From a virus (Duplodnaviria; Heunggongvirae; Uroviricota; Caudoviricetes): a DNA stretch of 64,000 bases. Position 1 is the first letter of the stretch; the number at the start of each line of letters is the position of its first letter. Positions 2,418 to 32,851 of the stretch are shown here, piece after piece. Location of the stretch: positions 1 through 64,000 of the IMG/VR virus record IMGVR_UViG_3300021963_000087; one strand, given 5' to 3'. The position numbers and the translations under genes are program-made. The notes beneath the pieces were generated by a model that did no database searches, was not told where the DNA came from, and saw only the letters and a list, made by a program, of their open reading frames with translations.

Positions 2418-4274
2418 ATGGACATTTCACAGAGCATTTTGAGTGATATTACCGTCTACATGAAGTATGCGAAGTATACACCAGAATTAGAAAGGAGAGA
2501 ATTATGGAACGAATTAGTGGATAGAAACAAAAACATGCACTTAAAAAAGTTCCCAGAACTAAGTGAGGAGATTGAAAATGCTTATAAATTTGTCTATGAT
2601 AAAAAGGCTTTACCTTCTATGCGTTCAATGCAATTTGCAGGTAAACCAATTGAAATAAGTCCTAATAGAATTTATAACTGTGCTTATTTACCAATAGATG
2701 ATTGGAGAGCATTTGGTGAAACAATGTTCCTATTATTAGGTGGAACAGGAGTAGGTTATTCAGTACAAAAGCATCACGTAGACTGCTTACCAGAAATTAG
2801 AAAACCAGATCCAAAAAAGAACAGACGTTTCTTAATTGGTGATTCTATTGAAGGATGGGCTGATGCAGTAAAAGTATTAGTTCGAGCATACTTTGAAGGT
2901 GGATCTACACCTAACTTTGATTTCTCGGACATCAGACCAAAAGGAGCTACATTAGTAACTTCAGGTGGTAAAGCACCTGGTCCTCAACCATTAAAAGAAT
3001 GCTTAATTAAAGTACAAGGTATTTTAGATAGCAAGCAAGATCGTGAGAAGTTATCTCCAATTGAAGTTCATGATATGGTTTGTCATATTGCAGATGCAGT
3101 ATTAGCAGGTGGTATTAGAAGAGCAGCTTTGATTAGTTTATTCAGTGCAGATGATGCAGATATGATTGGAGCTAAGTCTGGAGCATGGTGGGAAAATAAT
3201 CCACAAAGAGGTAGAGCAAATAACTCTGCAGTATTGTTAAGAAATAAAATTACAGAAGAATTCTTCTTTGAATTATGGGATAAGATTAAAGCAAGTGGTG
3301 CAGGTGAGCCTGGTATCTACTTTAACAACGATAAAGATTGGGGAACTAATCCATGTTGCGAAATTGCTTTAAGACCTTTCCAATTCTGTAACTTATGTGA
3401 AGTAAACGTTTCAGATGTTGTAGATCAAGATGATCTTAATGCAAGAGTAAAAGCAGCAGCTTTTATTGGTACTTTGCAAGCATCTTATACAAGCTTCCAC
3501 TACTTAAGACCAGTATGGCAAAGAACAACTGAGAAAGAAGCTTTAATTGGTGTTGGTATGACTGGTATTGGATCAGGTGCAGCACAAAAATTAGACTTAA
3601 AAGAAGCAGCCAGAATAGTTAAAGAAGAAAACGAAAGAGTAGCTAAGTTGTTAGGAATTAATTCTGCAGCTAGATGTACTACAATTAAACCTTCAGGTAC
3701 TTCATCTTTAACTTTAGGTACCTCCTCAGGTATCCATGCTTGGCATAACGATTACTACATTAGAAGAATTCGTGTTGGTAAGAATGAAGCAATGTACACA
3801 CATTTGTCAATTTACCATCCTGAATTAATTGAAGATGAATATTTCCGTCCACATGACACAGCAGTTATTTCTGTACCACAAAAAGCACCAGAAGGAGCTA
3901 TCTACAGAACAGAATCTGCAATGGATTTATTAGAAAGAGTTAAGTTCTTCTACCAAAACTGGATTAAACCAGGTCACAGATCAGGACAGAACACACATAA
4001 CATTTCTGCTACAGTCTCAATCAAAGAAGATGAGTGGGAAGCAGTAGGAAAGTGGATGTGGGATAATAGAAAGTTCTACAACGGGTTATCGGTTTTACCT
4101 TATGCAGATCACACATACAAGCAAGCTCCTTTTGAGGATTGTACCAAAGAGCAATACGAAGAAATGATGAGTCACTTACACAATATAGACTTATCTAAGA
4201 TCGTAGAATTGGTAGACAATACTGATTTGAAGGGTGAAGCTGCTTGTGCTGGTGGAGCATGCGAAATTGTGTAG
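2418..4274 (+). CDS. nrdJ: class II (adenosylcobalamin-dependent, RTPR-like monomeric) ribonucleotide reductase
   Basis: 618 aa. The N-terminal region resembles Lactobacillus RTPR (KYAKYTPELERRELWNELVDR). A C-terminal Cys cluster CAGGACEIV is typical of the RTPR redox tail. Confidence 0.75.
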   Translation: MDISQSILSDITVYMKYAKYTPELERRELWNELVDRNKNMHLKKFPELSEEIENAYKFVYDKKALPSMRSMQFAGKPIEISPNRIYNCAYLPIDDWRAFGETMFLLLGGTGVGYSVQKHHVDCLPEIRKPDPKKNRRFLIGDSIEGWADAVKVLVRAYFEGGSTPNFDFSDIRPKGATLVTSGGKAPGPQPLKECLIKVQGILDSKQDREKLSPIEVHDMVCHIADAVLAGGIRRAALISLFSADDADMIGAKSGAWWENNPQRGRANNSAVLLRNKITEEFFFELWDKIKASGAGEPGIYFNNDKDWGTNPCCEIALRPFQFCNLCEVNVSDVVDQDDLNARVKAAAFIGTLQASYTSFHYLRPVWQRTTEKEALIGVGMTGIGSGAAQKLDLKEAARIVKEENERVAKLLGINSAARCTTIKPSGTSSLTLGTSSGIHAWHNDYYIRRIRVGKNEAMYTHLSIYHPELIEDEYFRPHDTAVISVPQKAPEGAIYRTESAMDLLERVKFFYQNWIKPGHRSGQNTHNISATVSIKEDEWEAVGKWMWDNRKFYNGLSVLPYADHTYKQAPFEDCTKEQYEEMMSHLHNIDLSKIVELVDNTDLKGEAACAGGACEIV

Positions 4275-4550: not shown

Positions 4551-5024
4551 ATGAAGACTATTTTTAAATCTACCAAATTATTTGACGGCTATTCTACCTG
4601 CTTCCGTCAATGGAAAGCAGAAGGTACACATTGTAAATTTTTACACGGATATGCTGTATCTTTTAGAGTGTGGTTTGAAGGAGAGTTGGATGAAAGAAAC
4701 TGGGTATTTGACTTTGGTGGTATGAAGCGTGCAAAGTGTAATATCGAAGGTAAGTCACCTAAAGATTTCTTTACTTGGTTATTAGACCATACAACAGTAG
4801 TAGCAGAAGATGATCCATACTTAGAGCTTTTCAAGCAAATGGACAAAGATGGTATTATTCAATTGCGAGTACTACCTTCAGTAGGCTGTGAAAGATTTGC
4901 TCACTATTTGTATGACAAGATCAATACATTCTTATTAGAAGAAACACAAGGAAGAGTGAGAGCAGTTAAAGTAGAAGTATACGAGCATGAAAGAAACTCA
5001 GCTTCGTATGAACAACAAGATTAA
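4551..5024 (+). CDS. queD: QueD/PTPS-family 6-carboxytetrahydropterin synthase-like
   Basis: Aligns with E. coli QueD around the catalytic Cys and the HGH-like motif (THCKFLHGY; LLDHTTVV). It is divergent and may lack one Zn-binding His. Confidence 0.6.
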   Translation: MKTIFKSTKLFDGYSTCFRQWKAEGTHCKFLHGYAVSFRVWFEGELDERNWVFDFGGMKRAKCNIEGKSPKDFFTWLLDHTTVVAEDDPYLELFKQMDKDGIIQLRVLPSVGCERFAHYLYDKINTFLLEETQGRVRAVKVEVYEHERNSASYEQQD

Positions 5025-5255: not shown

Positions 5256-5725
5256 TGTCTTACAGCAGATGGTCTAACAGTAGGTGGTATACTTTTTGGA
5301 GTGCTATGGGTGCAGAGCCAACTCAGTACAAATGGCCTACCCAAAAGTTAAAAGATAATCAAGTATTTGAAATATGTGACATGCCCTCTTACCACATCAC
5401 TTATGGTGACTTAAAAAGAAGATCCAGATCCGCAATACTACATGAAATAGAAGAACACTTTGCAGCTGACTTTGATTGGCATGATATAGAGATTGTTGAT
5501 GGAAAGCTAGAGCGAGGTAAACCGAAAGTCATAAAAGGTAGAAGACCTACCTGGGATGAATTAAATGAATTACAATTATATCTTGCCCGTTTTATAAAAG
5601 ATGTTGATGATCACTTTAGATTTTGGACCTTTATGAAATATGAATGGTATTTTCCATTTAGAAATAAAATAATATTTAAGTATAGAAAATTAAAACAACG
5701 TTATGTCAAAGATAGATCCAAGTAA
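5255..5725 (+). CDS. hypothetical protein
   Basis: ORF in array. Confidence 0.35.
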   Translation: MSYSRWSNSRWYTFWSAMGAEPTQYKWPTQKLKDNQVFEICDMPSYHITYGDLKRRSRSAILHEIEEHFAADFDWHDIEIVDGKLERGKPKVIKGRRPTWDELNELQLYLARFIKDVDDHFRFWTFMKYEWYFPFRNKIIFKYRKLKQRYVKDRSK

Positions 5726-6536
5726 GTTATTAATTAGTAGTGACTTTTACACAGTCCAGGGAGAAGGAATTTCATCAGGTATTCCATCCTACTTTGTACG
5801 TTTAGGTATTTGTAACCTAACATGCGGCATGTCTCGTAAATTTGCTAATCAATTAGAGAAGGAACAAAAGTTAGAAGATGGTGAAATCTTTGTAGGCGAC
5901 TTGCATGCAGAAGGTAAAGCTACTTGGACTTGTGACTCTACTTCTCAGTGGTTATGGAGAGGTGAAGATAAAGATTTCCAATATTTAATTGATAGATGGA
6001 AAGAACAAGACATTTATGATGATATCATAAACGGTAATATTCATATTATTTGGACTGGTGGTGAACCTACAATTAAAGGACACCAAGAAGCAATTATTAA
6101 TTTCCTTGCATATTGGAAAGATGATAGATTTAATGCTAATTGTAGACCGTTTAACGAAATTGAAACTAATGGTACTATTGTTATTGATGAATTATTTGAT
6201 CATTTACAACAAATCAACTGCTCACCTAAATTGTCAAATTCAGGTATGACTGAAAAACAACGTATTAATCCAGAAGCAATTAAGCGTATTATGGAGCATG
6301 ATAACTATCAATTTAAGTTTGTTATTAGTACTGAAGATGATGTTAAGGAACTATTCCGTGACTTCGTAGAACCGTTTAATATACCACTTAAGAATGTAGT
6401 GTGTATGCCAGGTTTAGATGACGCAGCTAACTTTGAAGAAAGAACTCGATTTGTAATGGAGATGGCTAAGAAGTACAGATTTAGAGGTTTAACTAGATTA
6501 CACATTGCGGCTTGGAATAAAACATTAAACGTATAA
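5703..6536 (+). CDS. queE: 7-carboxy-7-deazaguanine synthase (QueE-like radical SAM)
   Basis: TVQGEGISSGIPSYFVRLGICNLTC matches the QueE N-terminus, and WTGGEPT matches the GGEP motif. The cluster motif reads CNLTCGMS (Cx3Cx2S). Confidence 0.75.
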   Translation: MSKIDPSKLLISSDFYTVQGEGISSGIPSYFVRLGICNLTCGMSRKFANQLEKEQKLEDGEIFVGDLHAEGKATWTCDSTSQWLWRGEDKDFQYLIDRWKEQDIYDDIINGNIHIIWTGGEPTIKGHQEAIINFLAYWKDDRFNANCRPFNEIETNGTIVIDELFDHLQQINCSPKLSNSGMTEKQRINPEAIKRIMEHDNYQFKFVISTEDDVKELFRDFVEPFNIPLKNVVCMPGLDDAANFEERTRFVMEMAKKYRFRGLTRLHIAAWNKTLNV

Positions 6537-8058: not shown

Positions 8059-8256
8059 ATGAAAAAGTATTTTGAACGTTTCGAGCCACTCTTTGTGGCT
8101 TTAGGAGCTCTCGTATTCATTTACGTAGGGCTGTTTCCAGGATTAACCTCAGCAAACACTTTCGTTAATGTAATTTGTACAGCAGGCCTAATAGGATTGG
8201 CTATCTTTTTGTATGTATACTACGAAGATTATTTCACCACTAAAAAAGAAGATTAG
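8059..8256 (+). CDS. small membrane protein (possible NfeD-like partner of SPFH protein)
   Basis: Two predicted TM helices. It lies immediately upstream of the SPFH gene. Confidence 0.35.
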   Translation: MKKYFERFEPLFVALGALVFIYVGLFPGLTSANTFVNVICTAGLIGLAIFLYVYYEDYFTTKKED

Positions 8257-8257
8257 T

Positions 8258-9172
8258 ATGGCATACGAAAGTTGGGAAGAAAGGGAAGCTCGTTACAGAG
8301 AACAAGAAAAACAAAACAGATTAAAACAACAAATAAAAATTAAACAAATGATTAAGTTATCAAGTCTCGGTGTTATAGGATTAATCCTAATGGTTTTATT
8401 AGTTAAGTCTTGCGAAAGAATCGATGCAGGACATGTGGGTGTTAAAGTAAATCTCTATGGAGATAATAAAGGTGTAAGTGATGTTACTGAAGTAACAGGT
8501 ATGGTGTTTTTTAATCCAATCACACATCAGATCTATGAGTTTCCGACCTTTATTCAACATAAAGAGTATACAGGTGATAATGCATTTATTGTAAACTCTA
8601 AGGATGGTAGTGAGTTTCATATTTCTCCTATCATTAACTACTCTGTAAAACGTGAAAAAGTACCATCTATCTTTGCTAAGTATCGTAGAAGCTTGGGTGA
8701 GATTGAAGATGGCTTCTTAAAGACTAACATTTACGATGCATTTCGTATGACAGCTAACTTTTATACAGCTGAAGAGTTAATTAGCAATCGTCAGTTATTT
8801 GAAACAAAGGTGAGACAAACATTAGATGCCAGCTTATTACCAGAAGGATTCATTATTAATCAATTGACTTCTAACTTAGTTTATCCTGAAACATTTAAAA
8901 GAGCTATTGAAGCTAAGAATAACGCAGTTCAATCAGCATTAATGGCTGAGAATAAGGTAAAGCAAGCAGAAGCTGAAGCTAAGATTAAAGTAGCTACTGC
9001 TGAAGGTAACGCATCAGCAATGCTAACATCAGCTAAAGCAGAAGCAGAGGCGAATAGATTAAAGCAACAAACCATTACTCCGATGTTATTACAATTAGAG
9101 TGGATCAATAAATGGGATGGTAAGCTACCAGTGTATGGTCAAGCTCCAATGTTGTATAAACCAATTAACTAA
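8258..9172 (+). CDS. SPFH/band-7 (stomatin/prohibitin/HflC-like) membrane protein
   Basis: N-terminal TM helix followed by an SPFH-like core. The C-terminus is an Ala/Glu-rich coiled coil (AEAEAKIKVATAEGNASAMLTSAKAEAEANRLK). The start was chosen at the non-overlapping ATG 8258; the ORF track starts at 8213. Confidence 0.5.
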   Translation: MAYESWEEREARYREQEKQNRLKQQIKIKQMIKLSSLGVIGLILMVLLVKSCERIDAGHVGVKVNLYGDNKGVSDVTEVTGMVFFNPITHQIYEFPTFIQHKEYTGDNAFIVNSKDGSEFHISPIINYSVKREKVPSIFAKYRRSLGEIEDGFLKTNIYDAFRMTANFYTAEELISNRQLFETKVRQTLDASLLPEGFIINQLTSNLVYPETFKRAIEAKNNAVQSALMAENKVKQAEAEAKIKVATAEGNASAMLTSAKAEAEANRLKQQTITPMLLQLEWINKWDGKLPVYGQAPMLYKPIN

Positions 9173-9793: not shown

Positions 9794-10018
9794 ATGACCA
9801 TAAACATAACCGAAACCAATCTTTATCTAGCCACTATTGTACTTTTAATAATCATTCAAATCTATCATCAAAAAAGAATAGCAAAACTTGAAAAAGAGAT
9901 AGATGATGTATGGCTTCAGCTTGGAGTTCTCACTCAAGGCCTTACTACTAAACTAATGGATCTACTTAAAGACTTAAATAACAAACAAGATAAAAATGAG
10001 AACAAGCGTAATAGTTAG
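9794..10018 (+). CDS. small membrane protein
   Basis: N-terminal hydrophobic helix. Confidence 0.35.
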   Translation: MTINITETNLYLATIVLLIIIQIYHQKRIAKLEKEIDDVWLQLGVLTQGLTTKLMDLLKDLNNKQDKNENKRNS

Positions 10019-10343
10019 ATTACAAGTTGATGGCATGCACAACTTTCCTAAAGCAGCAGAGTTGTTTCCAGAAGTAGCTTTTTTAGCAGAAAGACATAGA
10101 CATATATTTCACATCGAATTGAAAAAAGAAGTATTTCACGATGATAGAGATGTTGAGTTTATAATGTTTAAAAAAGACGTTACTGACTTTTTGAAGCAAA
10201 TGTACTATAAGCCTGAAACTCGCACACATGAGTTTGGTCCCATGAGCTGTGAAATGATAGCTAGGCAATTATTAAACCAATTCCACTGTATATCAGTGAC
10301 TGTCTGGGAGGACTTAGAAAATGGAGCAATCGTTGAAGCATAA
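9996..10343 (+). CDS. hypothetical protein
   Basis: ORF in array. Confidence 0.35.
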   Translation: MRTSVIVRLQVDGMHNFPKAAELFPEVAFLAERHRHIFHIELKKEVFHDDRDVEFIMFKKDVTDFLKQMYYKPETRTHEFGPMSCEMIARQLLNQFHCISVTVWEDLENGAIVEA

Positions 10344-11433
10344 AGTAACGCTAGTATTCGGGAGAATATGTAGTGGAAAAGGATCTTATATGAAGGATGC
10401 TGATAAGCGAATTGTGGTATCGGATATTGTAAAGAATATTATAAGCTCAAACAATAGAGATGCTTTGCAAAATTCCTTGCATTTGGATAATCAGATAGGT
10501 ACTACTTTGATTAATAGCATTTACATAGCTAGCATGGCTAATAGAGAACATGTTGTAGTAGATGGTATTAGACAAGTATCGATCGTAGACAGGGTTCTAA
10601 ACGCTTTTCCAGAGGCTGAATTGGTTTGGTTAGAAGTTCCAGTGGAGGAACGTAAACGAAGATATGAAGCTAGAAAGGATGTTAAGGACGTTGAATCATT
10701 CGAATTAGCAGATAATAAGGCTATAGAGTTGGAATGTCAGAAGATATTTCATACCTTTAAAGATAAATTAACAATTATAAACAATTACCAAATGGAATTA
10801 ATTAAAAAAGCTAACGGCAATATCGTTCGTACAGCTGAAGAAAAAGCTCAAATGATTGAGGAAGCTGCTAAATACTATGGACAGTTTTTAACAGCAATGG
10901 GTTTTGATTGGGAGGCTGATCCTCACTCGGCTGACACTCCAAAAAGAGTAGCAAAAGCTTGGGTGACTGATTTAATTAAAGGTTCAATAAATCCTGCTCC
11001 AGTAATAACAGCGTTTCCTAACGATGAAGGTTATACAGGATTAATATGTCAAACTCGTATTCCAGTGGTTAGTATGTGTGCTCACCACAATTTGCAATTT
11101 GTTGGTTTATGTCACGTAGCATATATTCCTGGCAAAGAAAAAACTGATATGGTTATTGGTTTAAGTAAACTAAATCGTATTGTGGATTTTTATAGTCGTA
11201 GACCTAATATACAAGAGTCTTTAACCAAGCAAATTCACGATGAAATTGATAAGTTATGCGTTGGTAATCGTGGAGTGGCTGTGATTGTTGAATCACAACA
11301 TAACTGTGTGCGATGCAGACAACTAAACCACGAAAGTGTGATGAAGACTTCACAGCTATCCGGCTACTTCCATACGAATGAGGTGGGTACTCGCGTAGAG
11401 CTATTTAGCTTAATTGAAAATTCTCGATTGTAA
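10321..11433 (+). CDS. folE: fusion: dNMP-kinase-like P-loop domain + GTP cyclohydrolase I (FolE)
   Basis: N-terminus has the P-loop VFGRICSGKGSY and a VVDGIRQ motif resembling T4 gp1 dNMP kinase. The C-terminal ~190 aa is clearly FolE (CAHHNLQF, GLSKLNRIVDFYSRRPNIQE). Confidence 0.8.
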   Translation: MEQSLKHKVTLVFGRICSGKGSYMKDADKRIVVSDIVKNIISSNNRDALQNSLHLDNQIGTTLINSIYIASMANREHVVVDGIRQVSIVDRVLNAFPEAELVWLEVPVEERKRRYEARKDVKDVESFELADNKAIELECQKIFHTFKDKLTIINNYQMELIKKANGNIVRTAEEKAQMIEEAAKYYGQFLTAMGFDWEADPHSADTPKRVAKAWVTDLIKGSINPAPVITAFPNDEGYTGLICQTRIPVVSMCAHHNLQFVGLCHVAYIPGKEKTDMVIGLSKLNRIVDFYSRRPNIQESLTKQIHDEIDKLCVGNRGVAVIVESQHNCVRCRQLNHESVMKTSQLSGYFHTNEVGTRVELFSLIENSRL

Positions 11434-11488: not shown

Positions 11489-12244
11489 ATGAAGCATTTT
11501 TTAAAACAAGGAGATATTTATCACAGTTGGACAGTTATTGAAGCACATAATCCAAATCCACAGAGCAGTTTAGTACAATGTTCGTGTGGAGAACAAAGAA
11601 CAATGCGAAATTGGAATTTAATAGATGGATCACCTAGCAAGTGTAAAGAATGTTATCAACTAGATAGAATTAAAGCTGCTCTCATTCCTGTAGGAACGCA
11701 GTATGGAGATTGGACTATTATAAGTGATAAATACGAAAAGAAAAACAGTAGAACTGGGGGGTTAAAACAGGAAGTAGTGTGTAAGTGTGGATATACTAAG
11801 TTTTTAGAGTTATACCAGCTAAAAGTAGGTAAGACTGTTAAGTGTTTAATATGTGCATCGAGAGATCGCTTGCAAGTATATAAAGACTTGATACCTATTC
11901 GCTATGTTAAACGAATAGAGTATGAAGCTATTAATAGAGGGCTTTTGTACGATCTAACCTTAGATTATCTATACAATCTGTATAACGAACAAAAAGGTAC
12001 TTGTGCTATATCAGGAATGATTCTTAGTATGCCATTAGTTAATATTTCTAGGTACGAAAAGGGAAAAAAATTCAATAATTCCAAAGACTTCACCGCTTCT
12101 TTAGATCGCATTGATTCAAAACAGGGTTATATTGAAGGTAATGTGCAGTGGGTACATAAACTTGTTAATAGGATGAAAATGGATTTAGATGAGGTTGAAT
12201 TTTTCAGTATTGTTAAGCAAATAAGTAAATACAAACAGCTATAA
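11489..12244 (+). CDS. HNH homing endonuclease-like
   Basis: CxxC pairs at the N-terminus. C-terminal motif DRIDSKQGYIEGNVQWVHKLVN is typical of HNH/AP2-type homing endonucleases. Confidence 0.55.
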   Translation: MKHFLKQGDIYHSWTVIEAHNPNPQSSLVQCSCGEQRTMRNWNLIDGSPSKCKECYQLDRIKAALIPVGTQYGDWTIISDKYEKKNSRTGGLKQEVVCKCGYTKFLELYQLKVGKTVKCLICASRDRLQVYKDLIPIRYVKRIEYEAINRGLLYDLTLDYLYNLYNEQKGTCAISGMILSMPLVNISRYEKGKKFNNSKDFTASLDRIDSKQGYIEGNVQWVHKLVNRMKMDLDEVEFFSIVKQISKYKQL

Positions 12245-12318
12245 TATCAAAAAATCAGTATAAATACCCTTGTTTAATTAGATTAGTTGGTGTAATTTTA
12301 TAGCATAAAACAAATAAT

Positions 12319-12852
12319 ATGAAAAAAACAACAACAAACCCCACGTACCCATCGTACAAAACTACTGATTTAGTTAATCATTTAAATGAATCAGGAACAG
12401 GCACTTTAAGTCAAACATTCAATCCTAACTTTACAACACAAAGTAAACCTCAAAGTCTATTTGCATATGTAAGTACCTCTCAACCAGGTACAATCGTTAA
12501 TATAAGCACAGAGTACCAAAATTTATCAGAGAAAGAAAAATCAGAATTACTTTCAAAATTATTTGAATGGATTGCTAATAAAAAAGCTGAGATTAAACCT
12601 GTAAAATTATATACAGAACAACAAGTAATAATGGCAATGCATTTAACTAATACATACAAAGAAAATTATAATCAGGTATTAGAACAATTAACACCCATAG
12701 AACTACCAACTGATGAGGAGGTAGAAGTAAAATCTAAAAAACTGCCATTTGAAGTTCGTGTTAATAACGATTTATATAACGAAGCTCTTAATGAAGGATT
12801 TTTTTTAGGAGTAGAATATATGCAACAACAAATACTCAACCAAAACAAATAA
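12319..12852 (+). CDS. hypothetical protein, paralog A (C-terminal ...YMQQQILNQNK)
   Basis: Shares a C-terminal motif with the next ORF. Confidence 0.45.
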   Translation: MKKTTTNPTYPSYKTTDLVNHLNESGTGTLSQTFNPNFTTQSKPQSLFAYVSTSQPGTIVNISTEYQNLSEKEKSELLSKLFEWIANKKAEIKPVKLYTEQQVIMAMHLTNTYKENYNQVLEQLTPIELPTDEEVEVKSKKLPFEVRVNNDLYNEALNEGFFLGVEYMQQQILNQNK

Positions 12853-12855
12853 CCT

Positions 12856-13119
12856 ATGAAAAACCATAATTATAACTTACCCACAGGTACAGATGAACAA
12901 GGACCTTATTGGTTAGATGAAAATAATAACAAATATAGATGGAATGGGCCAATGGTAGGACTCAGTATGAGCATGGAATTCTCTGTAATAGAACAAGAAG
13001 CTCAGAAACGACATCCCTATGAAAAACACATGGGTGCTACATGGGAAAATGGATTACACGAAGGTTTTATAATGGGTGCAGAATGGATGAAACAACAAAT
13101 ACTTAACCAAAACAAATAA
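12856..13119 (+). CDS. hypothetical protein, paralog B (C-terminal ...WMKQQILNQNK)
   Basis: C-terminal 20 aa nearly identical to the preceding ORF. Confidence 0.45.
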   Translation: MKNHNYNLPTGTDEQGPYWLDENNNKYRWNGPMVGLSMSMEFSVIEQEAQKRHPYEKHMGATWENGLHEGFIMGAEWMKQQILNQNK

Positions 13120-13125
13120 ACAGTT

Positions 13126-13365
13126 ATGAAAGTAAAAGAATTAATTGAAGCACTACAAAAAGTAGAAAACCAAGATGCAGAAGTATTCTACGGTAAAGAA
13201 AGTGAAGGAAGTATGTACATTTGCCATTATGATTTAGAAGAACATGATACTGATGGTAAATACGCTCACCCTGAATGGAATGCAGATTTTACTCCTAAAG
13301 AAAGAGTTGCTGACTATCCATATGATGAACCATCTAGATTGTCAATTTGGTTAGGATACCTATAA
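13126..13365 (+). CDS. hypothetical protein
   Basis: ORF in array. Confidence 0.35.
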   Translation: MKVKELIEALQKVENQDAEVFYGKESEGSMYICHYDLEEHDTDGKYAHPEWNADFTPKERVADYPYDEPSRLSIWLGYL

Positions 13366-13375
13366 ATTATAAATT

Positions 13376-13591
13376 ATGAGAACAGCAATGCAATTAATGC
13401 TTTGGTATTTAAAAAATGAAGGTCTTGAAGAAAGTGGAGCATATTATAAAGCTAAAATGCTACTTGAAAAAGAAAAAGAGGATTTAATGAAAGCATTTTC
13501 AGATGGTCAAGAAACACCAATAAACCATCCCACTCTACCTCATTATAGTAGAGAGGAGTATTATAACGATAACTATAATCAAGATAAATAA
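13376..13591 (+). CDS. hypothetical protein
   Basis: ORF in array. Confidence 0.35.
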   Translation: MRTAMQLMLWYLKNEGLEESGAYYKAKMLLEKEKEDLMKAFSDGQETPINHPTLPHYSREEYYNDNYNQDK

Positions 13592-13592
13592 T

Positions 13593-14402
13593 ATGAAAAA
13601 AGTAAAGTACGGATACATATCCCCAATTAAGTATCAGCACCTCATTCCAGAGAGTGCTGACTTTCATTTGATATTAGCTCACTTATTAGATAAGAAAGAG
13701 TACGTAGATTTCTACAAAGAGAAGATCAAGAGAGGCGATACAGTGATATTAGATAACTCAGCATTTGAGTTCAAGAGAGCGTTATCAGCTGAAGAGATCT
13801 TTGGCTTTATTGAACGTAGTGGCATTGAACCAACATATGTAGTAGCTCCAGATTACCCATTCCAAGAATGGCAAGTTACTATGGAATCTACTCTAGCTTT
13901 TATAGAAGAAGTTAAAGATAAACCTTACAAAGTAATGGCTGTTCCTCAAAGTAGAAGAGGTGATGTAGATGGATGGGTAACATGTTATGATTTAATGGTT
14001 ACGAATCCTAACATTAGTGTAATTGGTATGTCTATTTTAGGCATTCCTAACGCATTCCATGCGATGACTGGTACAGACGATATCGCTTTTAATAGAATAT
14101 TTGCAACCAAATATTTATTAGAGCGTAAGAATAACCATCCAACTAAGTGGCATCACTATTTGGGATTGGGTGGAGGACCGAGAGAAATCTTGATTCAAAG
14201 GCAGTTAGGATTAATGGATAGTAATGATTCATCTTCTCCTTTCTGGCATGGTTGTATGAATATTCATTTTGATAAAAGCATTTGGGGATTACAATATGGA
14301 AAAAGCAAGGAAGAAGTTAACTTCGATTTTGAATACTATCCAGGAAATGCTGAAGTTATTAAATATAACATCGATTACATGGAAAATGTTATTTTAAAAT
14401 AA
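13593..14402 (+). CDS. dpdA: DpdA-like / tRNA-guanine transglycosylase-fold protein (7-deazaguanine DNA transglycosylase candidate)
   Basis: ILDNSAFEF resembles the TGT DSGGFQ substrate-Asp motif. HHYLGLGGGPREIL...GLMDSNDSSSP resembles the TGT LMGVGxP...D motif. No C-terminal Zn site. Confidence 0.5.
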   Translation: MKKVKYGYISPIKYQHLIPESADFHLILAHLLDKKEYVDFYKEKIKRGDTVILDNSAFEFKRALSAEEIFGFIERSGIEPTYVVAPDYPFQEWQVTMESTLAFIEEVKDKPYKVMAVPQSRRGDVDGWVTCYDLMVTNPNISVIGMSILGIPNAFHAMTGTDDIAFNRIFATKYLLERKNNHPTKWHHYLGLGGGPREILIQRQLGLMDSNDSSSPFWHGCMNIHFDKSIWGLQYGKSKEEVNFDFEYYPGNAEVIKYNIDYMENVILK

Positions 14403-14599
14403 TGAAGGAATTTGACCCTAAACAAAAATCTCAAGGCTTAGGCGATACCATTGCTAAGTTTACAAACTTCTTTGGTATCGACAAGCTAGCGGATTGGGTA
14501 GCAAAGATGTTCGGAAAGAAGGATTGTGGATGTAATCGCCGTAGGAAACAATTAAATAAAATAGTATCTTATAAAGATGATAATAATAGACCTAAATAA
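14402..14599 (+). CDS. hypothetical protein
   Basis: ORF in array. Confidence 0.3.
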   Translation: MKEFDPKQKSQGLGDTIAKFTNFFGIDKLADWVAKMFGKKDCGCNRRRKQLNKIVSYKDDNNRPK

Positions 14600-14765
14600 A
14601 TACAAATCTATAGAGCATGCTCTTAAGGTTTATAAGCAAAAGCATAATAAGATCGGTACTGTAAAAGAACTACGTGATAGACAAACCTTTACAAAGCCTT
14701 CTGTTAAGCGCAGAGCTGAGTTATTAAATGCAAAATACAAACAACAAAAATACGGAAATCAATAA
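14577..14765 (+). CDS. basic small protein
   Basis: ORF in array; Lys/Arg-rich. Confidence 0.3.
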   Translation: MIIIDLNKYKSIEHALKVYKQKHNKIGTVKELRDRQTFTKPSVKRRAELLNAKYKQQKYGNQ

Positions 14766-14768
14766 GTT

Positions 14769-15293
14769 ATGTTAAACGCAGATCAAATTATAGAGAAAGG
14801 TCTACTTAAGTTAGAACACTCTAAAGGTAAAAAAGCTCAAATTGGTTACGACTTATCTTTGAAAGAAGTTAATAAGATTGGCAACAGCTCAGGTTTTGGG
14901 TTTGTTGTTGAAAGTAGAATTGGCAAAGTTTTAAAAGATAAAACTGAACTAACTACTTACAATAAAGTTGAAAAGCTTAATTTAGATGCAAAGCATGGAT
15001 GGTTACTACATCCAGGAGTTTACGACATTACCTTTTGGGAAGGATGCACAATTCCTTCTAACTATGTAGGATTAATTAGACAAAGATCCTCTATGTTAAG
15101 AAATGGTACAGTATTACATTCGTCTGTATTTGATCCAGGATTCGAGACAGAATTTATGGGAACTGTAATGGTAGTTAACGAACCTATCTTTATTGAGGAA
15201 GATGCTCGTGTAGCTCAAATTTATTTCCATGAGTGCGATCCTGTAGAAGAATTGTATGACGGCCAGTGGCAAAATGATAAACAAAGAAAGTAA
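14769..15293 (+). CDS. dCTP deaminase / dUTPase-superfamily protein
   Basis: IGYDLSL and SVFDPGFETEFMGTVMVVN resemble Dcd/dUTPase beta-barrel motifs. Confidence 0.5.
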   Translation: MLNADQIIEKGLLKLEHSKGKKAQIGYDLSLKEVNKIGNSSGFGFVVESRIGKVLKDKTELTTYNKVEKLNLDAKHGWLLHPGVYDITFWEGCTIPSNYVGLIRQRSSMLRNGTVLHSSVFDPGFETEFMGTVMVVNEPIFIEEDARVAQIYFHECDPVEELYDGQWQNDKQRK

Positions 15294-18901: not shown

Positions 18902-19336
18902 ATGGGAAACTTTAGACCCTTCGAGCTAGATCCATTTGACTTGCTTTGGAGAAATTTACTAGACACACAATCACACTTTACTGCACTCACGCAGAAAATC
19001 ACACATCCAGTAGACATTTTTGAAACAGAACAAGGCGTACTCTTTGAAGTAGCTGCTGTAGGACTTTGTCAAGAAGACATTGAAATTCTTGTCGACGGAG
19101 ATCAATTACGCATCAAACACGATGCAAAACCATTTAATCAAGAAAACGCTCTTTACAGAGGTATTAAAAGATCTGGTTTTGACCTTACTTTTAAGATCTC
19201 AACTAAGTTTGATCTATCACAGTTAGCAGCATCTTTAGACAAAGGATTACTAACTCTCAGTATTCCAGTTGCTGAAGGTAAAGCAGTGCGTAGAATTGAA
19301 ATCAATGTGCCAAAAGCACTTCCAGCTAAAAAATAA
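18902..19336 (+). CDS. small heat-shock protein (Hsp20/alpha-crystallin family)
   Basis: Alpha-crystallin core PVDIFETEQGVLFEVAAVGLCQEDIEILVDGDQLRI. Confidence 0.75.
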   Translation: MGNFRPFELDPFDLLWRNLLDTQSHFTALTQKITHPVDIFETEQGVLFEVAAVGLCQEDIEILVDGDQLRIKHDAKPFNQENALYRGIKRSGFDLTFKISTKFDLSQLAASLDKGLLTLSIPVAEGKAVRRIEINVPKALPAKK

Positions 19337-19367
19337 ATAAAGGTAAAAGGCCTACCAAATATCTGTT

Positions 19368-19550
19368 ATGTTTAAAAATGAGTTCCTCACCTTTCAAGAC
19401 AACCTCTACGTCATTAAAAAGATTATCCGCGAAGACACAAATCCTGTCATCGACGTTTGGAAAGAACATTTAAGGGCGGATATTGTATTAAGAAGGGATG
19501 GATGGCTCTATTTTTTAGAGTTAGTACCTGATTTAGAAATTATTAATTAA
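19368..19550 (+). CDS. hypothetical protein
   Basis: ORF in array. Confidence 0.3.
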   Translation: MFKNEFLTFQDNLYVIKKIIREDTNPVIDVWKEHLRADIVLRRDGWLYFLELVPDLEIIN

Positions 19551-19558
19551 TAAAGTAT

Positions 19559-19849
19559 ATGAGTAAATTACAACCAATGAATGGCTATCTAATACTGAAG
19601 CCAATTGAAGAAGAGGAGCAAACGTATGGCAACATCGTAATCCCAGATTTAGGTAAAGAGAAGCCTGAAATCGGAATAGTAGTAGCAACATCAGGAACCT
19701 ACAACTTTAATTCAGACAAGTTAGTACCATCAAGTCTACAAGAAGGAGACAAAGTCTTAATTCCAAAATTAGGATCTTTGAGAATTACTGTGGAAGGTGA
19801 GGAGTACTACATTACAAAAGAACAAGACGTTTATTCAAAATTTAATTAA
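19559..19849 (+). CDS. groES: co-chaperonin GroES
   Basis: 96 aa. LKPIEEEEQTYGNIVIPD mobile-loop region and GroES fold pattern. Immediately upstream of groEL. Confidence 0.8.
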   Translation: MSKLQPMNGYLILKPIEEEEQTYGNIVIPDLGKEKPEIGIVVATSGTYNFNSDKLVPSSLQEGDKVLIPKLGSLRITVEGEEYYITKEQDVYSKFN

Positions 19850-19851
19850 AA

Positions 19852-21516
19852 ATGGCAACACAAACAGTTTTTGGAATAGAGCTAAAAAATAAACTATTAG
19901 CAGGTATTAAGCAATTAAACCATTCTGTGTCTTCAACATTAGGACCAGGTGGTAGAACAGTTTTGATCAAGGATAGATCAGGCGAAGTGAAAGTAACTAA
20001 AGATGGTGTGACTGTTGCAAAGTCGTTTCATGAATTAGAAGACCAAGTTGAGGACTTAGGTGCTCAATTAGTAAAGCAAGTATCTATTAAGTCTGCTAAT
20101 GAAGCAGGTGATGGTACTACTACTTCAACTTTACTTACTACTGTTATGGTAGAGGAAGGATTGAAACTAATTAACCAAGGTTCTAATCCAGTAGAAGTTA
20201 AAAAAGCAATTGACAAATATGTAGCACAAGTAGTTGAAAACTTGAGAAACATATCTCAAGACATTTCAACAGAAGAACAGATTAAGCAAGTGGCTACTAT
20301 TTCTGCTAACAACGATACTGAAGTAGGAGAATTAATTGCTACAGCTATTGGTAAAGTTGGTAGAGAAGGTATTGTTACAATTGAAGAATCTAAAACTGGT
20401 GAAACTAGTTTAGAAGTTGTGGAAGGTATGCAGTTTGATAGAGGTTACAAATCTCCTTACTTCGTTACCAACAATAATACAATGACTGCTACATTGGATG
20501 AACCATATGTTTTAATCTACGATGGTAGAATTACTACTGCAGCAGAGTTGTTAAATGTTTTGAATAAGGTAAACTCAGAGAACAAATCTTTGTTGATTGT
20601 TGCTGAGGATATTGATGGTGAAGCATTGGCAACTTTGATTGTTAATAAGATGAGAGGTATTGTTAAAGTGGCTGCTGTTAAAGCACCTGACTTTGGTGAA
20701 AGAAAAACCTTGCTTTTGGAAGACTTAGCTATCTTGACAAAGGGTCAAGTTATAAGTAAAGACAAAGGACATAAGTTAGATAAATTAACACCAGTCCAAT
20801 TAGTAGAATTTTTAGGTAAAGCTAGATTGGTAACAGTTGGTAAAGAAGATACTACAGTTGTAGATGGTAAAGGTGAGACGGAAGCAATTAATGCAAGAGC
20901 TGAAGAAATTAAAGAGCAAATTGAAAAAGCTGGTTCATTCTACGAAAAAGAGAAACTACAAGAGAGATTAGGTAAACTAATTGGTGGTGTAGCTATCATT
21001 TCAGTAGGAGGTAACTCAGACATTGAAATTAAAGAAAAGAAAGATAGAGTAGAAGATGCTTTATTTGCTACCAAAGCAGCATTAGTTGAAGGAGTAGTTC
21101 CAGGTGGAGGTATTGCTTTGATTGAAGCTTTTGAGTCAGTAGGTTTACCACAAACTGCATCAAGCGATAATCAAAAGGGTTGGGATATTGTAAGAAAGGC
21201 TTGTAATAGTCCTTTTACTACAATCTTAACAAATTGCGGTATTGAAGATTATTATGGAATTTTACGTCTTATTAAAGATACACGCGGAGATTTCTTTGCT
21301 GCTTCACAACAAGATGAGTTATTTACCTATAATGCTAAAACCCATACTGTAGTACATGCTGTCGAAGCAGGATTGTTAGATCCCACCAAAGTAACACGCA
21401 CAGCTTTAGAGAATGCAGCATCAGTAGCTGGAACAATATTAACCACCGAATCAGTTATCTTCGAAAAGAAAGACGACAAGTCTAAAGAAGATGACATGAT
21501 GTCACAATACCAATAG
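19852..21516 (+). CDS. groEL: chaperonin GroEL
   Basis: [14 protein letters not shown]-binding motif, [27 protein letters not shown], and the C-terminal tail MMSQYQ. Confidence 0.93.
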
Positions 21517-30859: not shown

Positions 30860-31244
30860 GGGGATGCCTGGAATTGATCCAGATGAGATGGGTAGTATCG
30901 CATGCAAGAGCTGGTAGAGCTCAAACAATCTATCGAACAACAAACGACGAAATGTCAACTATGACCTTCGAAGACTTAATGTCTTTCGTAGGCGCGAATG
31001 AGTACGCAGTAGCGGCTTAATTAGCAACGGGTCGGTGCACATATAACCTAGGAACAGAAGTGTTTACAAAGTGATAACACCACCTTAAAAGTGTTAAATG
31101 TTTTCTTTGTTATGTCAAAACAAAGTGGTGGATCTTGGTACTTAATCGTACGGCCCTTTACTGATCAGGTAAAACAGATCTAAGCATGTAAGAATGGTAT
31201 TATTTATACTTCTGGAGACAGGGGTTCGATTCCCCTCATCTCCA
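30860..31244 (+). ncRNA. ssrA: tmRNA (SsrA), full length; tag ends ...GANEYAVAA-stop
   Basis: 5' GGGGAUG pairs with 3' CAUCUCC including the G3-U70 wobble. T-arm is agggg-ttcgatt-cccct. Internal tag ORF reads ggc gcg aat gag tac gca gta gcg gct taa. Confidence 0.75.
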
Positions 31245-31291
31245 CTGGGTGCCTTTTTGTATCTTTTAACTATTTATAGTAAAGGTATAAA

Positions 31292-32237: not shown

Positions 32238-32309
32238 CGCAAGATAGAGCAGAGGTAGCTCACTAGGCTCATAACCTAGGGGTCGAAGGTTCGAATCCTT
32301 CTCTTGCAA
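32238..32309 (+). tRNA. tRNA-Met (CAT), initiator-like
   Basis: C1-A72 mismatch, D-arm gagc-agaggta-gctc identical to E. coli tRNA-fMet, anticodon loop ctCATaa, T-loop ttcgaat, 3' GCAAC. Confidence 0.75.
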
Positions 32310-32316
32310 CAAATAT

Positions 32317-32448
32317 GCCAGAGTGGCGGAATAAACAATGCATTGCTATACACGCGTTAAAGCACTAATGCATTGAGACGTGCCCTAATCCGGAGTGGTG
32401 CAGTGACCGAAAAGGACTGCGTGAAGGTAACCAACCCTTCCTCTGGCA
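32317..32448 (+). ncRNA. tRNA-like structured RNA (132 nt; paired termini, tRNA-Leu-like 5' end, no canonical cloverleaf)
   Basis: 5' gccagag pairs with 3' ctctggc, followed by a-cc. An internal 10-bp hairpin is built from the palindrome caatgcattg, and a second hairpin is gcagt-(11 nt)-actgc. Confidence 0.35.
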
Positions 32449-32462
32449 CCTTAATATAACGA

Positions 32463-32547
32463 AGCCTTGGTGTTGGAACTGGTAGACAAGTCAGACTTAA
32501 AATCTGGTTCGCTGAAAGCGAGTGCGGGTTCGATTCCCGCCTGAGGC
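32463..32547 (+). tRNA. tRNA-Leu (TAA)
   Basis: Class II tRNA. D-arm ttggaactggtagacaa, anticodon loop ctTAAaa, long variable arm, T-arm gcggg-ttcgatt-cccgc. Confidence 0.8.
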
Positions 32548-32571
32548 ACGGGCAGTATTATGTGTATTACT

Positions 32572-32656
32572 TGGAAAGATGGCAGAGTGGTTGAATGCAC
32601 CGGTCTTGAAAACCGGCAACTGTAAAAGGTTCTGGGGTTCGAATCCCTGTCTTTCC
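32572..32656 (+). tRNA. tRNA-Ser (TGA)
   Basis: Acceptor ggaaaga/tctttcc, anticodon stem ccggt/accgg with loop ctTGAaa, long variable arm, T-loop ttcgaat. Confidence 0.8.
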
Positions 32657-32767
32657 GCAAGATGTCTATCCCCCTTCCCAACGAACAGGGCGCTTAGGGT
32701 AGGCCTTTTACCAAAGTGGATAAAACGTGTAGTAACCACAGGGATGCTAGCTCCCACTACACTCTTC

Positions 32768-32838
32768 TGCCCTTTAGTATAACGGTAGTACGGCAGTTTT
32801 TGGTACTGCTTGTTGAGGTTCGAATCCTTGAGGGGCAA
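32768..32838 (+). tRNA. tRNA-Gln (TTG)
   Basis: U1-A72 as in E. coli tRNA-Gln, U8 A9, anticodon stem gcagt/actgc with loop ttTTGgt, T-arm tgagg-ttcgaat-ccttg. Confidence 0.7.
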
Positions 32839-32851
32839 CAAAATAAAAGTT

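Follow-up and report, generated by a model that had tools for sequence, protein, structure and literature searches.

Which enzyme is encoded at positions 13593–14402 of the IMG/VR virus record IMGVR_UViG_3300021963_000087, and which base would it write into the genome of this caudoviricete phage? The window, by which we mean the whole stretch of 64,000 nucleotides that was analysed, carries there an open reading frame (ORF) that the original prediction, made from the letters alone, took for a divergent protein of the tRNA-guanine transglycosylase (TGT) fold lacking the zinc subdomain, and for a candidate DpdA-like DNA transglycosylase. Homology, fold, catalytic residues and gene context supported this candidate and sharpened it to DpdA3. 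The gene adds one member to a known family, within a predicted pathway of the 7-deazaguanine (DG) type, and is ordinary in kind. The gene and its motifs lie as follows.

13593–14402, plus strand: DpdA3-subfamily TGT-fold transglycosylase of 269 amino acids (aa), without the zinc subdomain
13752–13772, plus strand: DNSAFEF (aa 54–60), with D54 the predicted general acid/base and F58 the predicted base-stacking residue
13839–13859, plus strand: VVAPDYP, with D87 the predicted base-recognition Asp (equivalent of TGT Asp156 and of Asp130 in bacterial DpdA, bDpdA)
13935–13952, plus strand: MAVPQS, with Q119 the equivalent of the TGT Gln
14157–14180, plus strand: YLGLGGGP (aa 189–196), the equivalent of TGT YLMGVGxP
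14214–14234, plus strand: MDSNDSS (aa 208–214), with D212 the predicted nucleophile that would form a covalent glycosyl-enzyme intermediate

The ORF and the motifs DNSAFEF, YLGLGGGP and MDSNDSS were all present as first quoted, and the pattern D[NS][SG][AG]F[EQ] occurred a single time when the window was translated in six frames. The gene is tightly packed, since the TAA stop of the preceding ORF finishes at 13591 and its own stop shares TAATG (14400–14404) with the next ATG. The counts of relatives indicate that it is real and under selection: a database clustered at 90% held 185 homologs, with identities of 93% and lower, and a library clustered at 50% identity held 3057 clusters at E<=1e-3 and 1423 at E<=1e-10. 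Homologs were nearly all 250–300 aa long, and any that bore a source name was called 'hypothetical protein'.

We modelled the protein with AlphaFold2 from an alignment of 30 sequences. The model (pLDDT 95.1, pTM 0.92) contained eight beta/alpha units, and this predicted structure is a (beta/alpha)8 TIM barrel closest to TGT/DpdA structures. The best 12 Foldseek matches in the PDB were all TGT entries (E 5e-7 to 1e-5); the match to the TGT barrel, on which the DpdA proposal had been staked beforehand, was thus obtained. Among predicted viral structures, Foldseek found M4SLA5 of Cellulophaga phage phiST (E 1.5e-18, TM 0.83/0.86, rmsd 2.6 A), with phage proteins annotated as 'queuine tRNA-ribosyltransferases' further down the list. 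The window protein shares the TIM barrel, the D...D catalytic pair, the Gln and the GxG motifs with Tgt and ArcTGT (PF01702), but is about 100 residues shorter than Tgt and lacks the N-terminal lid, the zinc subdomain and the elements that bind tRNA. The bDpdA of Salmonella Montevideo (PDB 7UI4) has about 410 aa and four insertions, and requires the DpdB ATPase (PMC10164549). In contrast, none of the four insertions and no zinc site were found in the window protein, and the sole ATPase-like neighbour of DpdA3 was an AAA_18 domain, small and of kinase type, no search aimed at DpdB or DpdC having been made.

Absence of the zinc site was a property of the whole family. The window protein has two cysteines (C131 and C221) and no CxCxxC motif, none of 139 diverse relatives has CxCxxC, and the richest cysteine column of their alignment is just 55% Cys. 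Between 50 and 77 residues follow the nucleophile Asp in these 139 members, compared with about 110 in E. coli Tgt, and the tail is therefore too short for the zinc subdomain of TGT or bDpdA. The earlier expectation that loss of this site marks DpdA proteins held in part. It agrees with the phage enzymes, as the DpdA of Enterobacteria phage 9g has four scattered cysteines and no CxCxxC, but it fails for bacterial DpdA, whose structural CXCX2CX22H zinc site is described as conserved in the bDpdA family (PMC10164549).

The catalytic residues were conserved against a background of strong divergence. In the alignment of the 139 members, with a mean column identity of 17%, only D54, G191 and D212 were invariant. 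Positions conserved at 90% or more included N55 (97%), E59 (98%), D87 (94%), T96, Q119 (92%), R168, H188 (99%), L190 and N259, while F58 was present in 72%; the only basic positions at this level were R168 and K237. Comparison by hhalign of the 139-member profile with phage 9g DpdA gave a probability of 91% (E 1e-6) and covered both catalytic Asp motifs, pairing ILDNgAFE with FLDSGAFS, VPQ with CFH (9g CFHAG), HlLGl with VHGFGI, and S-DSSS with SCDSSSW. Two aspartates of bDpdA are essential, the acid/base Asp95 and the nucleophile Asp256, and a third, Asp130, is the proposed base reader (Gedara et al., PMC10164549). The best match of the profile among PDB sequences was bDpdA itself, at an E of 0.055 that is marginal alone, and D212 fell on the Asp of SIDST, which is Asp256 if the chain has a 20-residue tag. 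The spacing from D54 to F58 is D-x3-F, as in Asp95/Phe99 of bDpdA. D54 and F58 thus match the acid/base Asp of TGT and DpdA (Zm TGT D102, bDpdA D95) with its Phe at +4, and D212 matches the nucleophile (Zm TGT D280, Ec D264, bDpdA D256). Both catalytic aspartates, without which the DpdA proposal would have fallen, were therefore found as invariant residues aligned to the 9g and bDpdA motifs, and by alignment D54 and D212 are the equivalents of Asp95 and Asp256 of bDpdA. D87 is probably the equivalent of Asp130; it falls on FDEC of Tgt in low-probability hhalign alignments only, and no Asp stands opposite it in the 9g comparison. Against E. coli Tgt, hhalign gave a probability of 0.1% with the shallow profile A1 and of 1.2% with the deeper profile A2, the latter pairing VVAPDY with MIFDEC, VPQS with IIQGS, YLGLGGGP with YLMGVGKP, and MDSNDSS with IDMFDCV. 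Of these comparisons, the one with 9g DpdA supplied the informative link.

To which DpdA subfamily does the protein belong? The name DpdA3 was given to phiST CGPG_00065 and its relatives by Hutinet et al. in 2023 (PMC10516641). The window protein matched PHROG 20335 (5e-17) and PHROG 19058 (2e-5), both families of unknown function, and did not match PHROG 887. PHROG 20335 has the phiST DpdA3 as its seed and PHROG 19058 includes the immuto DpdA3, whereas the 9g DpdA1 is in PHROG 887; on these matches the window protein is a DpdA3. A tblastn search of 50,697 phage records returned 13, including the Cellulophaga phages phiST, phi13:1 and phi19:2 at 30% identity, Flavobacterium immuto phages at 24% (annotated 'DNA guanine transglycosylase, DpdA'), and Vibrio D479, Aeromonas Ahp1_CNU-2021, Rhizobium RHph_I1_18 and Vibrio Bakedbeans at 27–32%. 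The phiST and immuto proteins scored 6e-13 and 3e-9 in this search and 4e-20 and 3e-16 in pairwise comparison. E. coli Tgt used as tblastn query found bona fide bacterial-type tgt genes only in the phage genomes, and no DpdA. The phiST DpdA3 (PhiST_gp042, AGO47181.1; 30% identity over 211 aa) resembles the window protein in size and in having no zinc motif. The DpdA1 of phage 9g (AHN84519.1), for which preQ0 insertion into DNA was shown experimentally (PMC6884629), resembles it as a small, acidic profile match without CxCxxC, but was undetectable by BLAST; phages with DpdA1 carry partial G modification at specific motifs.

The family escapes the usual annotation models. The window protein had no Pfam match at E<=1, TGT (PF01702) included, and did not match the archaeal-virus DpdA4 model DUF6610 (PF20314) or the bacterial DpdA model PF23859. 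Among the 139 relatives, weak matches were obtained to Pfam TGT in just 3 and to DUF6610 in 5 (best E 3.8e-4). The protein and a 30-sequence profile found nothing relevant among PDB sequences (best, a discoidin at E>0.1), and megablast of the DpdA3 locus against phage genomes gave no match. A scan of a species-representative genome collection with profile A1 yielded five relatives only, all on short metagenome-assembled genome contigs of unrelated taxonomy, so the family is effectively viral. Some members of 368–457 aa (P0171, P0142, P0166, P0197, and that of Rhizobium phage RHph_I1_18, L054 7001–8269) carry a C-terminal DUF3310, for which no solved relative and no functional literature were found.

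We then asked which base such an enzyme would use. The window encodes the following pathway genes.

4551–5024, plus strand: QueD (6-carboxytetrahydropterin synthase) with motif CKFLHGY; Pfam PTPS 4e-15, above cutoff
5703–6536, plus strand: QueE-like radical SAM enzyme (7-carboxy-7-deazaguanine synthase); phmmer match to phage 9g QueE
9996–10343, plus strand: DpdL homolog of 115 aa, a QueD-like predicted decarboxylase of 7-carboxy-7-deazaguanine (CDG); 42% identity to phiST DpdL, E 5e-28
10321–11433, plus strand: fusion of a P-loop (AAA_18) kinase-like domain with GTP cyclohydrolase I (FolE); GTP_cyclohydroI 8e-41, AAA_18 1.5e-6

Five NCBIfam QueE models matched the QueE-like protein with E of 8e-14 to 1e-7, all below their cutoffs. 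DpdL is recognized by the signature LxxxHRHxF in place of CxxxHGH of QueD (PMC10516641), and the window homolog carries LAERHRHIF, which fits it; judged by its size and its place in the gene order, phiST gp040 corresponds to the protein that the 2023 paper calls DpdL (CGPG_00067). The window yielded no homolog of QueC or QueF (phmmer, E<1e-4, with 9g Gat-QueC and immuto QueF as queries), and the related loci yielded no QueC homolog at the same threshold with the 9g query. We compared 42 IMG/VR loci together with phiST, immuto and a 340-kb contig, forming 23 clusters at 80% DpdA3 identity. In this sample, which was seeded with peptide patterns of the window's own clade and is thus biased toward DpdL-type loci, DpdA3 was accompanied by DpdL in 19/23 clusters, QueE in 20/22, QueD in 18/22, FolE in 12/22, QueC in 0/17 and QueF in 1/17 (immuto). 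The DpdA3 gene is tightly linked to DpdL, and not to QueA, QueG or QueF. Complete replacement of dG has been found in three phages, by dDG (the deoxynucleoside of DG) in phiST, fdPreQ1 in immuto and dADG in Campylobacter phage CP220 (PMC10516641). Because the window has DpdL where immuto has QueF and DpdN, and neither QueC nor QueF was found, the base is predicted by analogy to be DG, as in phiST.

The most probable reading, to which we assign a probability of roughly 0.6, is that the window DpdA3 is a guanine/7-deazaguanine transglycosylase that carries out the insertion step when the phage hypermodifies its DNA. We observed the fold, the conserved catalytic residues, the homology to DpdA3 and DpdA1, and the gene context; from these we infer that the protein is active as an enzyme, that its base is DG, that DNA accepts this base (as assumed in the literature), and how far replacement goes. 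The FolE domain would convert GTP into dihydroneopterin triphosphate, QueD would form 6-carboxytetrahydropterin (CPH4), QueE would form CDG, and the DpdL homolog would decarboxylate CDG to DG. DpdA3 would then swap guanine for DG by the double-displacement mechanism of TGT and DpdA: D212 would attack C1' to form a covalent deoxyribosyl-enzyme intermediate as guanine departs, D54 would act as general acid and next as general base, D87 and Q119 would read the base edge, and F58 would stack on the base. If the phage resembles phiST in this respect, dDG would stand in for most or all dG in its virion DNA and would block G-dependent restriction enzymes.

Several observations weigh against this reading. 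Coexpression of DpdL and DpdA3 in E. coli gave no dDG (Hutinet et al., PMC10516641), and no demonstrated activity of any DpdA3 was found in the literature, including that after the 2023 paper. Replacement is 100% in DpdA3 phages versus 0.1–30% for the characterized DpdA1, DpdA2 and bDpdA (PMC10516641), and complete replacement by a post-replicative enzyme is thus without precedent among characterized DpdA proteins. Neither the zinc subdomain nor the insertions by which bDpdA and TGT hold nucleic acids are present in the window protein, which reaches the threshold of no Pfam or NCBIfam model and has marginal ties to TGT and bDpdA when sequence alone is considered. A conserved His in DpdA1 (after beta-5) and bDpdA is replaced by Gln119 in the DpdA3 family. 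QueC could lie outside the 64 kb seen. Genes of nucleotide metabolism accompany DpdA3 and likewise make DNA-level exchange less certain.

One of these accompanying genes is the following.

14769–15293, plus strand: dUTPase/DCD-fold nucleoside triphosphate (NTP) pyrophosphatase-like protein; Pfam DCD 1e-14, PDB 9w59 5e-12

The NCBIfam dUTPase model PRK02253 matched its product at 2e-24, below cutoff. A role as dCTP deaminase was rejected, as the best matches are dUTPases and the position of the deaminase Glu, in what we take to be the motif of that enzyme, reads GTVMVVN by eye, so that the catalytic Glu appears to be missing. A dUTPase-fold gene lies 0.4–2 kb downstream of DpdA3 in 16/22 clusters. 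It is also found downstream of DpdA3 in an Aeromonas strabovirus and in an unrelated Rhizobium T4-like phage, immediately adjacent in the latter; MazG/PRA-PH-type pyrophosphatases are present in phiST and immuto. Among cultured phages, Rhizobium phage RHph_I1_18, Aeromonas phage Ahp1_CNU-2021 and Vibrio phage D479 have close homologs of the window gene in a module of DpdL, DpdA3 and a dUTPase-fold gene like that of the window. Such a gene may be relevant to complete replacement of G. The P-loop AAA_18 kinase occurs in 12/23 clusters and is homologous to phiST gp041 and to a gene adjoining DpdA3 in locus L003; its domain has no significant relative in the PDB (best NDUFA10, E 0.24). By gene order, phiST gp041 is CGPG_00066, for which no homologs in other 7-deazaguanine phages were reported (PMC10516641). 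In the loci compared here, the kinase travels with DpdA3. In the window the kinase and FolE form one ORF of 370 aa with FolE at the C-terminus, but they are two adjacent genes in L005, L006 (8845–9303 and 9319–9963), L007, L013 and L017; the fusion seems to have arisen locally, or is possibly a sequencing artefact. A type I phosphoribosyltransferase (PF00156, above threshold) of 131–145 aa occurs in many DpdA3 loci (8/20 clusters), and examples are listed below. The corresponding stretch of the window (14402–14765, plus strand) contains two small ORFs of unknown kind and no phosphoribosyltransferase.

L006 10813–11217: PF00156 phosphoribosyltransferase, directly downstream of DpdA3
L028 7168–7605: PF00156 phosphoribosyltransferase
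L001 5846–6241: PF00156 phosphoribosyltransferase

These accessory genes fit either recycling of the excised guanine to GTP for FolE, a scenario suited by the kinase adjoining or being fused with FolE, or a pre-replicative route from dGTP through dGMP and dDGMP to dDGTP. They bear on whether complete substitution precedes or follows replication, and they are candidates for the factor absent from the failed heterologous reconstitution.

The pre-replicative route would require DpdA3 to act on a free deoxynucleotide instead of DNA, building a dDGTP pool with the same base, DG; we hold this to be rather unlikely. The dUTPase-fold or MazG pyrophosphatase would convert dGTP to dGMP, depleting dGTP and supplying the substrate, a step analogous to that which MazZ supplies for PurZ in Z-genome phages. 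On dGMP, DpdA3 would replace G with DG; dDGTP would be produced by the P-loop kinase together with host NDK and incorporated by phage PolA, and the phosphoribosyltransferase would recycle the released guanine toward GTP for FolE. If true, this would explain why substitution is 100% in all three DpdA3 phages and solely in them, and why DpdL and DpdA3 alone failed in E. coli. It also agrees with the frequent pyrophosphatase-type, kinase and phosphoribosyltransferase genes, and with a minimal barrel that has no insertions for gripping nucleic acid and so few conserved basic positions. However, the 9g DpdA1 modifies DNA even though it, too, is small, acidic and free of zinc; the motifs of the dUTPase-fold protein are those of an ordinary dUTPase, with no sign of purine specificity; a kinase beside or fused with FolE fits GTP supply equally well; and phage replication modules commonly contain genes for dUTPases and kinases. 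To our knowledge, all characterized TGT-superfamily enzymes use a polynucleotide, or in the case of Cap10 a protein conjugate. Net charge and pI did not separate DpdA3 from its DNA-acting or tRNA-acting relatives and therefore give no evidence on the type of substrate. The free dADG nucleoside reported in CP220-infected cells (cited in PMC10516641) is a further point for action on nucleotides.

The last two steps of the DG pathway might also be reversed, DpdA3 inserting CDG into DNA and DpdL then decarboxylating dCDG to dDG. Hutinet et al. raised CDG as a possible common DpdA3 substrate, since the pathway of the dADG-producing Campylobacter phages likewise ends at CDG (PMC10516641), and DpdL and DpdA3 are adjacent or nearly so in most loci. 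This order is improbable, as dCDG was not detected in phiST DNA, the published model of DpdL suggested action on the free base (PMC10516641), and DpdL, a T-fold protein of 115 aa, shows no obvious element for binding DNA. A tRNA-guanine transglycosylase serving host or phage tRNAs is scarcely credible. The fold is that of TGT and the window encodes four tRNAs (32238–32839) and a transfer-messenger RNA (tmRNA), but the protein has no Pfam TGT match and no zinc subdomain, and its gene is linked to DpdL as described above. Bacterial TGT modifies tRNAs with GUN anticodons (Asp, Asn, His, Tyr), and the phage tRNAs, being Met, Leu, Ser and Gln, fall outside this set. Homologs of the protein, moreover, occur in phages with fully modified DNA (PMC10516641).

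The preferred reading, insertion of DG into DNA by DpdA3, adds an uncultured immuto-like marine phage to those predicted to write their genomes with 7-deazaguanine for guanine. Fully G-substituted DNA resists most restriction enzymes and has consequences for how environmental viral DNA is sequenced and cloned. The family is large (the 3057 clusters above), almost all unannotated, and invisible to the function labels of Pfam, NCBIfam and PHROG; the moderate interest of the window gene lies in family size, missing annotation and the question of mechanism.

From which phage does the window come? Its PolA is 57.8% identical to that of immuto, all others being at or below about 31%, and the order DpdA3...PolA-GroES-GroEL is common to both; by these sequence comparisons the window is from an uncultured immuto-like phage, with immuto the closest cultured phage overall. 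The homologous transglycosylases are far more diverged (24% identity) than the polymerases (58%), and immuto, which carries fdPreQ1, has QueF and a formyltransferase (DpdN) where the window has DpdL. Such low transglycosylase identity, together with the DpdL-type instead of the QueF/DpdN-type pathway, is consistent with a modification module that diverged or was exchanged along with base specificity. phiST has the same neighbours as the window, namely DpdL, P-loop kinase, FolE, QueD and QueE without QueC, but belongs to a different phage lineage with a PolIII-alpha replicase in place of the immuto-like PolA. Its MazG-type NTP pyrophosphatase lies upstream, whereas the window has the dUTPase-fold gene downstream and the kinase fused to FolE.

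Other features of the window and related loci were recorded. QueD has CxxxHGY in the window (4551–5024), L002 (4489–5118), L001 (3923–4384) and L054 (1849–2427), the phages with this form being that of the window, phiST, immuto and RHph_I1_18; the 9g QueD has the canonical CxxxHGH, in which zinc is described as being bound by the second His (PMC10516641). A 2.1-kb insert (11489–13591, plus strand) separates FolE from DpdA3, which directly adjoin in L006. It contains an HNH/endonuclease VII-like gene (11489–12244) and four small ORFs, two of which (12319–12852 and 12856–13119) share a near-identical terminal peptide, ...EGFxxGxExMxQQILNQNK, that suggests tandem duplication. The remaining features are these.

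2418–4274 and 8213–9172, plus strand: class II (B12-type) ribonucleotide reductase and SPFH/Band-7 protein, from Pfam matches
18902–21516, plus strand: ORF between PolA and GroES that looks Hsp20-like (by eye), and GroES- and GroEL-like genes
30860–31247, plus strand: tmRNA with tag peptide ANEYAVAA; Rfam RF00023, 75 bits, full length
32238–32839, plus strand: four tRNAs after the tmRNA, Met-CAT, Leu-TAA, Ser-TGA and Gln-TTG

These GroES- and GroEL-like genes were assigned by sequence inspection and synteny with immuto, and the Hsp20-like ORF by inspection. The tmRNA/tRNA region coincides with a local rise of the GC content to 0.41.
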